Origin: Escherichia coli
GTDB lineage: Bacteria; Pseudomonadota; Gammaproteobacteria; Enterobacterales; Enterobacteriaceae
NCBI RefSeq assembly: GCF_003334405.1
Contig: NZ_QOWM01000002.1
Reading direction: 5' to 3' (one strand)
Length of the DNA: 64,000 bases
A model generated the notes under the pieces. It was not told the origin of the DNA and searched no databases. It saw nothing but the letters and a program-made list of their open reading frames with translations. Below, piece after piece: positions 47,254 to 47,499 of the stretch (the stretch's first letter is position 1; each line of letters begins with the position of its first letter). The position numbers and the translations under genes were made by a program.

Positions 47254-47269
47254 TTCTTGCGAGTTTCAG

Positions 47270-47297
47270 AAAAGGGGGCCTGAGTGGCCCCTTTTTT
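47270..47297 (+). terminator. rpsO intrinsic terminator
   Basis: AAAAGGGGGCC-TGAGT-GGCCCCTTTTTT. Confidence 0.8.
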
Positions 47298-47499
47298 CAA
47301 GCTGACGGCAGCAATTCACTGGAAACTAATGTATTGTTGCTATGAATGATCTTCCGTTGCAGAGGTTCGCGCGGCTAATGAGAGGCTTTACCCACATAGA
47401 GCTGGGTTAGGGTTGTCATTAGTCGCGAGGATGCGCAGAAGATCGGGTATTAACACCAGTGCCGTAAGGTACTGTCTAAGAAAGAGAAAGGATATTACA

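Follow-up and report, generated by a model that had tools for sequence, protein, structure and literature searches.

The spacer between rpsO and pnp, positions 47254-47499 of the window (the whole stretch of 64,000 nucleotides of Escherichia coli DNA that was analysed), almost certainly carries sraG, the known cis-antisense small RNA (sRNA) gene of this spacer, which represses pnp modestly. The placement and the identity of the gene were observed directly in this DNA, and the mechanism is that of published experiments on identical DNA. SraG is here an already known and curated E. coli sRNA and in that respect an ordinary finding. What we add are its exact coordinates, a promoter that probably extends outside the spacer, and an asymmetry between the two strands of the locus.

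Position and identity of sraG

The genes around the spacer and the forms of SraG that we placed in it are as follows.

45891-46835, truB
46984-47253, plus strand, rpsO (ribosomal protein S15), TAA stop at 47251-47253
47254-47499, the rpsO-pnp spacer, 246 bp
from 47500, plus strand, pnp (PNPase), TTG start at 47500-47502 as in the MG1655 annotation
47270..47485, minus strand, SraG primary transcript, 216 nt, 5' U at 47485, 3' end at 47270 after a 4-U tail
47270..47443, minus strand, older 174-nt form 'SraG-S' (Argaman 2001)
47444..47485, minus strand, the 5' 42 nt of SraG, opposite the pnp leader immediately upstream of the Shine-Dalgarno sequence

The rpsO stop at 47251-47253 and the pnp start at 47500 bear out the 246-bp spacer (47254..47499) that the earlier note on this DNA had delimited. 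Over 47240-47520 the window is 100% identical to E. coli K-12 MG1655 (270 aligned bases, with the whole 216-nt sraG included), and this identity extends alike to the gene, the promoter and the terminator DNA. A 701-nt query across the spacer was found in 5426/5426 complete E. coli genomes, at an identity of at least 99% in 5412 of them. As the spacer DNA is E. coli chromosome, identical to MG1655, the K-12 knowledge of this locus applies to it directly.

Based on an Rfam scan of 44000-51000 against all families, RF00082 (SraG; gathering score 50) had a full-length match on the minus strand at 47441..47270, with 164.3 bits, E = 5.9e-31 and model positions 1-177/177 covered, a score far above what chance would give. 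The match sits between rpsO and pnp, which are both on the plus strand, and thus on the strand opposite to both; when the whole window was scanned, the same match ranked top. The MG1655 ncRNA sraG (b4449, also named PsrO; 3311183..3311398) maps to 47485..47270 of the window, minus strand, 216 nt. The window gene is therefore the K-12 sraG in the same DNA and the same rpsO-pnp position, antisense to the pnp leader and without any sequence difference. The earlier note had claimed SraG on the minus strand of the spacer, and had set an alignment of SraG to the minus strand of 47254..47499 as the check on that claim; the family match and the MG1655 gene both fall there. It had been unable to place the ends, for which we now give 47485 as the primary 5' end, 47443 as the older 5' end and 47270 as the 3' end.

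These ends follow the published mapping. In the work of Fontaine et al. 2016 (PMC5029454), cRT-PCR on RNA that had or had not been treated with polyphosphatase gave a primary transcript of 216 nt; its true start lies 42 nt upstream of the 5' end of Argaman et al. 2001, its 3' end lies at the rpsO terminator, and about half of SraG is present as processed forms of ~190 nt (PMC5029454). The older 5' end is accordingly 47485 - 42 = 47443, and the 174-nt form that begins there agrees to within 2 nt with the RF00082 match (47441..47270). The 216-nt RNA was predicted to fold into a long interrupted mirror hairpin and a terminator hairpin (MFE -62.3 kcal/mol, z = -3.6). In the source strain of the window SraG is presumably transcribed as well, judging from the K-12 strain experiments with identical DNA.

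In the automated RefSeq annotations of E. coli genomes (records H1-H10), only rpsO and pnp were found under the spacer query. The sraG gene is in the curated MG1655 record and apparently absent from the pipeline annotations.

Promoter and terminator

SraG RNA lies wholly within 47254..47499, and its promoter probably reaches past 47499 into the first pnp codons. The following elements were placed at the two ends of the gene.

47488-47492, plus strand, pnp ribosome-binding site AAGGA, kept, like the TTG start, across 116 species
47492..47499, minus strand, SraG -10 region, TGTAATAT, between the pnp Shine-Dalgarno sequence and TTG, from a hexamer search
47518..47523, minus strand, candidate SraG -35, TTTACG, 4/6 matches, 18-nt spacer to TGTAAT, opposite pnp codons 7-8 (CGT AAA)
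47275..47297, both strands, bidirectional rho-independent terminator (T1 for rpsO, T for sraG), stem at 47275-47291

Upstream of 47485 the minus strand reads TTTACG-N18-TGTAATAT-CCTTTC-T(+1), with two overlapping -10 hexamers, TAATAT (47497..47492) and TGTAAT (47499..47494). TAATAT best fits the mapped start, at a 6-nt gap to +1; TGTAAT is closer to consensus (5/6) and does not have the conserved A at position 2. It is because of this missing A that a generic sigma-70 scan misses the SraG promoter, and such a scan made no call there. By its sequence and spacing TTTACG at 47518..47523 is the likely -35 element. The promoter is a weak one. Its -10 has been tested genetically: a mutation 'close to but not overlapping' the pnp Shine-Dalgarno sequence abolishes the 216-nt SraG, and an earlier autoregulation-defective mutation falls on the same -10 (PMC5029454). 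The 5' end at 47485, which is 2-3 nt upstream of AAGGA (47488-47492), agrees with that published description.

Most species read ...AAGGATATTATT-TTG before pnp, so that the minus strand has AATAAT in place of the TGTAAT of E. coli and E. albertii. The arrangement TTTACG-18-AATAAT occurred in 42 species, at least 8/12 promoter matches were present in 65/115 species, and the -35 hexamer TTTACG was found in most Enterobacterales. This conservation is not creditable to SraG, because the same bases are the Shine-Dalgarno-to-start spacer and pnp codons 7-8, and we rejected cross-genus conservation of the promoter as evidence for the reason that it coincides with that spacer and with coding sequence. 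Similarly, pnp codons 3-9 (47506-47526) showed a mildly raised top-codon fraction, 0.72-0.89 vs 0.36-0.55 in codons 24-33 (114 species). This synonymous uniformity was dropped as a sign that the SraG -35 and spacer are under selection, as it is confounded with translation-initiation constraint. The stretch 47506-47526 overlaps the candidate -35 and spacer of SraG, the translation-initiation region and the reported RNase E target area. A longer minus-strand transcript has been predicted to start 339 nt upstream of the SraG promoter, at ~47824 (PMC5029454). With both strands of 47700-47950 scanned for a second upstream promoter that could give the 'residual' SraG signal, no promoter-like site was seen.

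The earlier note had also placed the rpsO terminator hairpin in the spacer, and we found its stem, GGGGCC...GGCCCC, at 47275-47291, with the T-run after it on the plus strand at 47292-47297 and a U-run on the minus strand at 47273..47270. A minus-strand terminator was called at 47291..47275, with a 6-bp all-G·C stem and then CUUUU, and the SraG 3' end at 47270 comes after GGGGCCACUCAGGCCCC-CUUUU. The stem scores as a minus-strand terminator too because on the plus strand an A-run precedes it and a T-run follows it. The rpsO terminator has been described as bidirectional (PMC5029454), and the terminal hairpin is included in the RF00082 alignment.

The pnp leader hairpin and the action of SraG on pnp

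On the sense strand two further elements face SraG.

~47348-47444, plus strand, long hairpin 'R' of the pnp leader, from folds, the RNase III processing site for pnp autoregulation
47327..47342, plus strand, putative pnp P2 promoter, -10 area with conserved TAATGTATTGTTGC, start near 47342

The pnp leader lies ahead of the TTG start at 47500, and its fold (47330-47520) has an MFE of -66.4 kcal/mol (z = -4.0) and contains the long hairpin at ~47348-47444. SraG contains the mirror image of this hairpin. The RNase III sites RIII1 and RIII2 of pnp have mirror sites in SraG; RNase III sites were located 39 and 77 nt from the pnp P2 start, and the P1-to-RIII1 fragment is ~500 nt long (PMC5029454). 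From the 39/77-nt spacings, the hairpin geometry and the ~500-nt fragment together with the P1 start, we infer a P2 start at ~47342 and RNase III sites at ~47380 and ~47418. Cuts at these two sites, staggered by 2 nt, would excise a 38-nt stem-loop from the folded hairpin, and a P1 start near 46882, from a promoter scan, agrees with the length of the P1-to-RIII1 fragment. With P2 at its putative start, SraG overlaps ~144 nt of the P2 transcript and 216 nt of the P1 transcript.

Being encoded on the strand opposite its target, SraG matches the pnp 5' leader with perfect complementarity. Overexpressed 216-nt SraG lowers pnp mRNA, pnp mRNA half-life, pnp-lacZ expression and PNPase, and the 174-nt form does not; in vitro, the 30S/tRNAfMet toeprint on pnp is abolished by full-length SraG and not by the 174-nt form, and the 5' 42 nt are required for repression (PMC5029454). 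Free SraG is cut by RNase III at the mirror images of two pnp sites, and the SraG-pnp duplex is cut at new sites (PMC5029454). The effects are small. The -10 mutation that removes SraG raises pnp mRNA and PNPase 1.3-fold, and the effect on pnp is ~2-fold at most under ~30-fold SraG overexpression; deletion of hfq leaves the level of SraG and its effect on pnp-lacZ unchanged (PMC5029454).

In the mechanism that we propose for the window, SraG transcription would begin at 47485 on the minus strand, from the -10 between the pnp Shine-Dalgarno sequence and TTG, cross the pnp leader in the antisense direction and end at 47270 at the two-way rpsO terminator. The first 42 nt of SraG would pair to within 2-3 nt of the Shine-Dalgarno sequence and so prevent 30S subunit loading. 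The long SraG-pnp duplex would receive new RNase III cuts, and pnp mRNA would be destabilised by them. SraG would then be a modest extra brake, added to the regulation that pnp already receives from RNase III/PNPase autoregulation and from CsrA, and its physiological importance is probably small.

Conservation of the two strands in Enterobacterales

For the comparison of the two strands, contigs from one genome per species were scanned with a degenerate pattern of the pnp N-terminus, which avoids selection on the spacer itself. This gave 120 Enterobacterales loci, with a clean rpsO-pnp spacer in 116 of them, and 104 distinct sequences were compared. When conservation across the 116 spacers was followed along the E. 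coli sequence, the hairpin arms at 47364-47386 and 47413-47433 were near-invariant, and the terminator, the block 47320-47341 and AAGGA...TTG were conserved too. The least conserved part of the spacer was 47445-47483 (identity mostly 0-0.6), which is opposite the 5' 42 nt of SraG. RF00082 scored above threshold in 17/19 diverse Enterobacterales loci, in each case within the rpsO-pnp spacer, with scores from 162 bits in E. albertii to 62 bits in Providencia; among these 19 loci, it was missing in two reduced endosymbiont genomes.

The base pairs of the hairpin differ between the strands. In the core helix, 47374·47423 and 47367·47430 are G·U on the pnp strand in 102-103/104 sequences, and 47384·47413, 47387·47410 and 47371·47426 are frequently G·U on that strand as well. 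On the SraG side every such pair becomes a C-A mismatch. A·C combinations, which would be G·U on the SraG strand, were close to zero in the core helix of the 104 sequences. The hairpin region was more stable on the plus strand in 103/104 sequences (mean -47.7 vs -31.2 kcal/mol), and RNAalifold gave -21.6 kcal/mol for the plus strand vs -1.2 for the minus strand. Raw energy is a partly compositional test of the strand, because the plus strand is 57% G+T, and for this reason a shuffle control was added; raw folding energy alone was set aside and the shuffle-normalised z was used instead. The mean z was -6.3 on the plus strand vs -3.9 on the minus strand, and it was lower on the plus strand in 98/104 sequences. 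For the E. coli sequence alone the z of the two strands was equal (-4.4 and -4.5), and over the same 113 nt the SraG hairpin had -34.9 vs -47.6 kcal/mol for the pnp hairpin. A possibility is that the weaker hairpin lets SraG open and invade the more stable pnp hairpin.

We lean towards the view that the deep conservation of the Rfam SraG family is owed to the sense-strand RNase III hairpin of the pnp leader, with the sRNA as a lineage-variable add-on. The Rfam SraG model looks like a largely mirror image of the pnp-leader hairpin, and the functional part of SraG, its 5' 42 nt, may evolve freely. The two elements share the same DNA (~47348-47444) on opposite strands, SraG being the mirror and cut at the mirror sites. 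The hairpin itself is a cis-acting element of the sense strand, and the conserved G·U pairs suit that strand alone, unlike SraG. On this view the structure under conservation belongs to the pnp leader and not to SraG, so that a match to RF00082 in another genus is no proof of an expressed sRNA, which calls for caution in the curation of the family. The strand asymmetry casts no doubt on SraG in E. coli itself, which has been established by experiment.

The same results could be taken further, with the pnp-leader hairpin as the only functional element and the antisense transcript as a weak by-product, with little role, of a promoter-like, AT-rich ribosome-binding site. We regard this as rather unlikely, although it is the strongest of the competing explanations. 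The greater plus-strand stability, in the individual sequences and in the RNAalifold consensus, is in line with it, and so are the lower plus-strand z and the near-invariant G·U pairs that become C-A mismatches in SraG and have next to no A·C counterpart. It would also fit the lack of sequence conservation in the part of SraG needed for repression, the small, 1.3-fold effect of the promoter mutation, and the report that SraG was undetected in Dickeya by RNA-seq under the conditions of that study (PMC6735904). However, SraG exists in E. coli as a distinct primary RNA whose triphosphate 5' end has been mapped and whose -10 can be mutated, it lowers pnp expression in vivo and keeps 30S subunits from binding in vitro, and the earlier autoregulation-defective mutation falls at that same -10 (PMC5029454). 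The unconserved 5' part is no argument against function, because a cis-antisense RNA keeps its complementarity without sequence conservation, and the z of the two strands is equal in E. coli. A functional leader hairpin and a cis-antisense SraG are, moreover, not mutually exclusive. For E. coli, the idea that antisense transcription is noise conflicts with the mapped 5' end, the -10 mutant and the effects in trans; the physiological role of SraG may be negligible.

The arms at 47364-47386 and 47413-47433 were near-invariant in ~100 species, beyond the needs of base pairing. This suggests either that RNase III, PNPase or S1 recognises the sequence itself or that both strands constrain it. Longer spacers of 360-535 bp, which is 100-290 bp above the usual ~245 bp, were seen at 5 loci (Ca. 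Hartigia, Providencia, a Xenorhabdus and others), and something has therefore been inserted there. An insertion element at the rpsO-pnp spacer has been reported in Yersinia pestis (PMC5029454).

Action in trans, transcriptional interference and coding potential

Cis-antisense repression of pnp by SraG is also to be weighed against a main action in trans, with Hfq or ProQ, on distant mRNAs, the overlap with pnp being incidental. In favour of this, the Kd of SraG for Hfq is sub-nanomolar to nanomolar and the two co-immunoprecipitate (PMC5029454), and SraG is among the ProQ-associated antisense RNAs (PMC5391140). Lu et al. 2012, as cited in PMC5029454, reported the YPK_1206-1205 operon as a target of SraG repression in Yersinia pseudotuberculosis. 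However, the Yersinia target genes have no homologues outside the genus, and in E. coli no trans target was revealed by total-protein labelling, by microarrays after 7-min induction or among ten predicted targets (PMC5029454). The hfq deletion, which alters neither the level of SraG nor its effect on pnp-lacZ, also speaks against it, and we consider a mainly trans-acting SraG improbable in E. coli.

Still less probable is that repression comes from convergent transcription, by interference or collision with P1 and P2 or by occlusion of the ribosome-binding-site DNA, and not from RNA-RNA pairing. The SraG promoter does face P2 and P1, with the overlaps of ~144 nt and 216 nt given above, and the authors of the experimental study mention cis events as a possible reason for the scarcity of the ~190-nt processed form under expression from a plasmid (PMC5029454). 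Against this, plasmid-borne SraG lowers pnp mRNA and protein in trans, purified SraG blocks the toeprint, and inactivation of P2 left SraG levels unchanged (PMC5029454). Because plasmid-borne and purified SraG both act in trans, interference is unlikely to be the main mechanism.

That the minus strand encodes a small protein instead of a non-coding RNA can practically be dismissed: the sole AUG-initiated frame in SraG, which is 14 aa long in E. coli and starts in the invariant CUAAUGA arm, gave 93 different peptides of 8-50 aa across 112 species, with no conserved length or C-terminus and hence no conserved ORF in SraG among these species; the mechanical 58-aa minus-strand ORF that overlaps the area (47564..47388) starts inside pnp, upstream of the mapped SraG 5' end; and pulse labelling revealed no new protein (PMC5029454). 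A coding function of the minus strand was rejected on the grounds that the 14-codon frame is unconserved and the 58-aa ORF starts outside the transcript.

Relation to other antisense RNAs and use of the coordinates

As a cis-antisense RNA that lies at the 5' region or junction of its target with full complementarity, SraG resembles AsflhD/flhD, GadY/gadXW and SymR/symE, and it shares with them the cleavage of the duplex by RNase III and a modest fine-tuning. Unlike AsflhD, GadY and SymR, SraG ends at a bidirectional terminator that also serves the upstream gene and has its promoter within the ribosome-binding site of its target, and that target encodes an exoribonuclease which degrades SraG fragments. 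At the same syntenic rpsO-pnpA locus, antisense or intergenic transcripts have been described in Listeria (RliD) and Enterococcus (ref41) (PMC5029454). According to the same source they have no sequence similarity to SraG.

Most automated E. coli annotations omit sraG, and the Rfam model and the original 174-nt annotation both miss the regulatory 5' 42 nt (47444-47485), which are needed for function and are present in the 216-nt form. In view of these gaps, 47485..47270 are the SraG coordinates to use.

Other features in the window

Antisense inside pnp there is an open frame of 491 codons (48223-49698, minus strand), which is a mechanical ORF and shows no sign of being a gene. The scans of the region and of the whole window also returned other known RNAs.

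7984-8091, minus strand, ArcZ sRNA
29736-29857, plus strand, greA leader
36510-36593, plus strand, tRNA
40379-40452, plus strand, tRNA
40544-40644, plus strand, rimP leader
45343-45413, plus strand, naRNA4/CssrE match (RF02564), 68.1 bits, with 27 bits on the opposite strand
46926-47040, plus strand, Ribosomal S15 leader (RF00114), 117.6 bits, overlapping the rpsO start

The RF00114 match at 46926-47040 is the known translational operator of rpsO. A Ribosomal S15 leader upstream of rpsO was also present in 16/19 other Enterobacterales loci that were scanned. The RF02564 match at 45343-45413 is a palindromic REP-type element upstream of truB, and the same element was found in E. albertii (4039-4109 of the locus scanned from that species).
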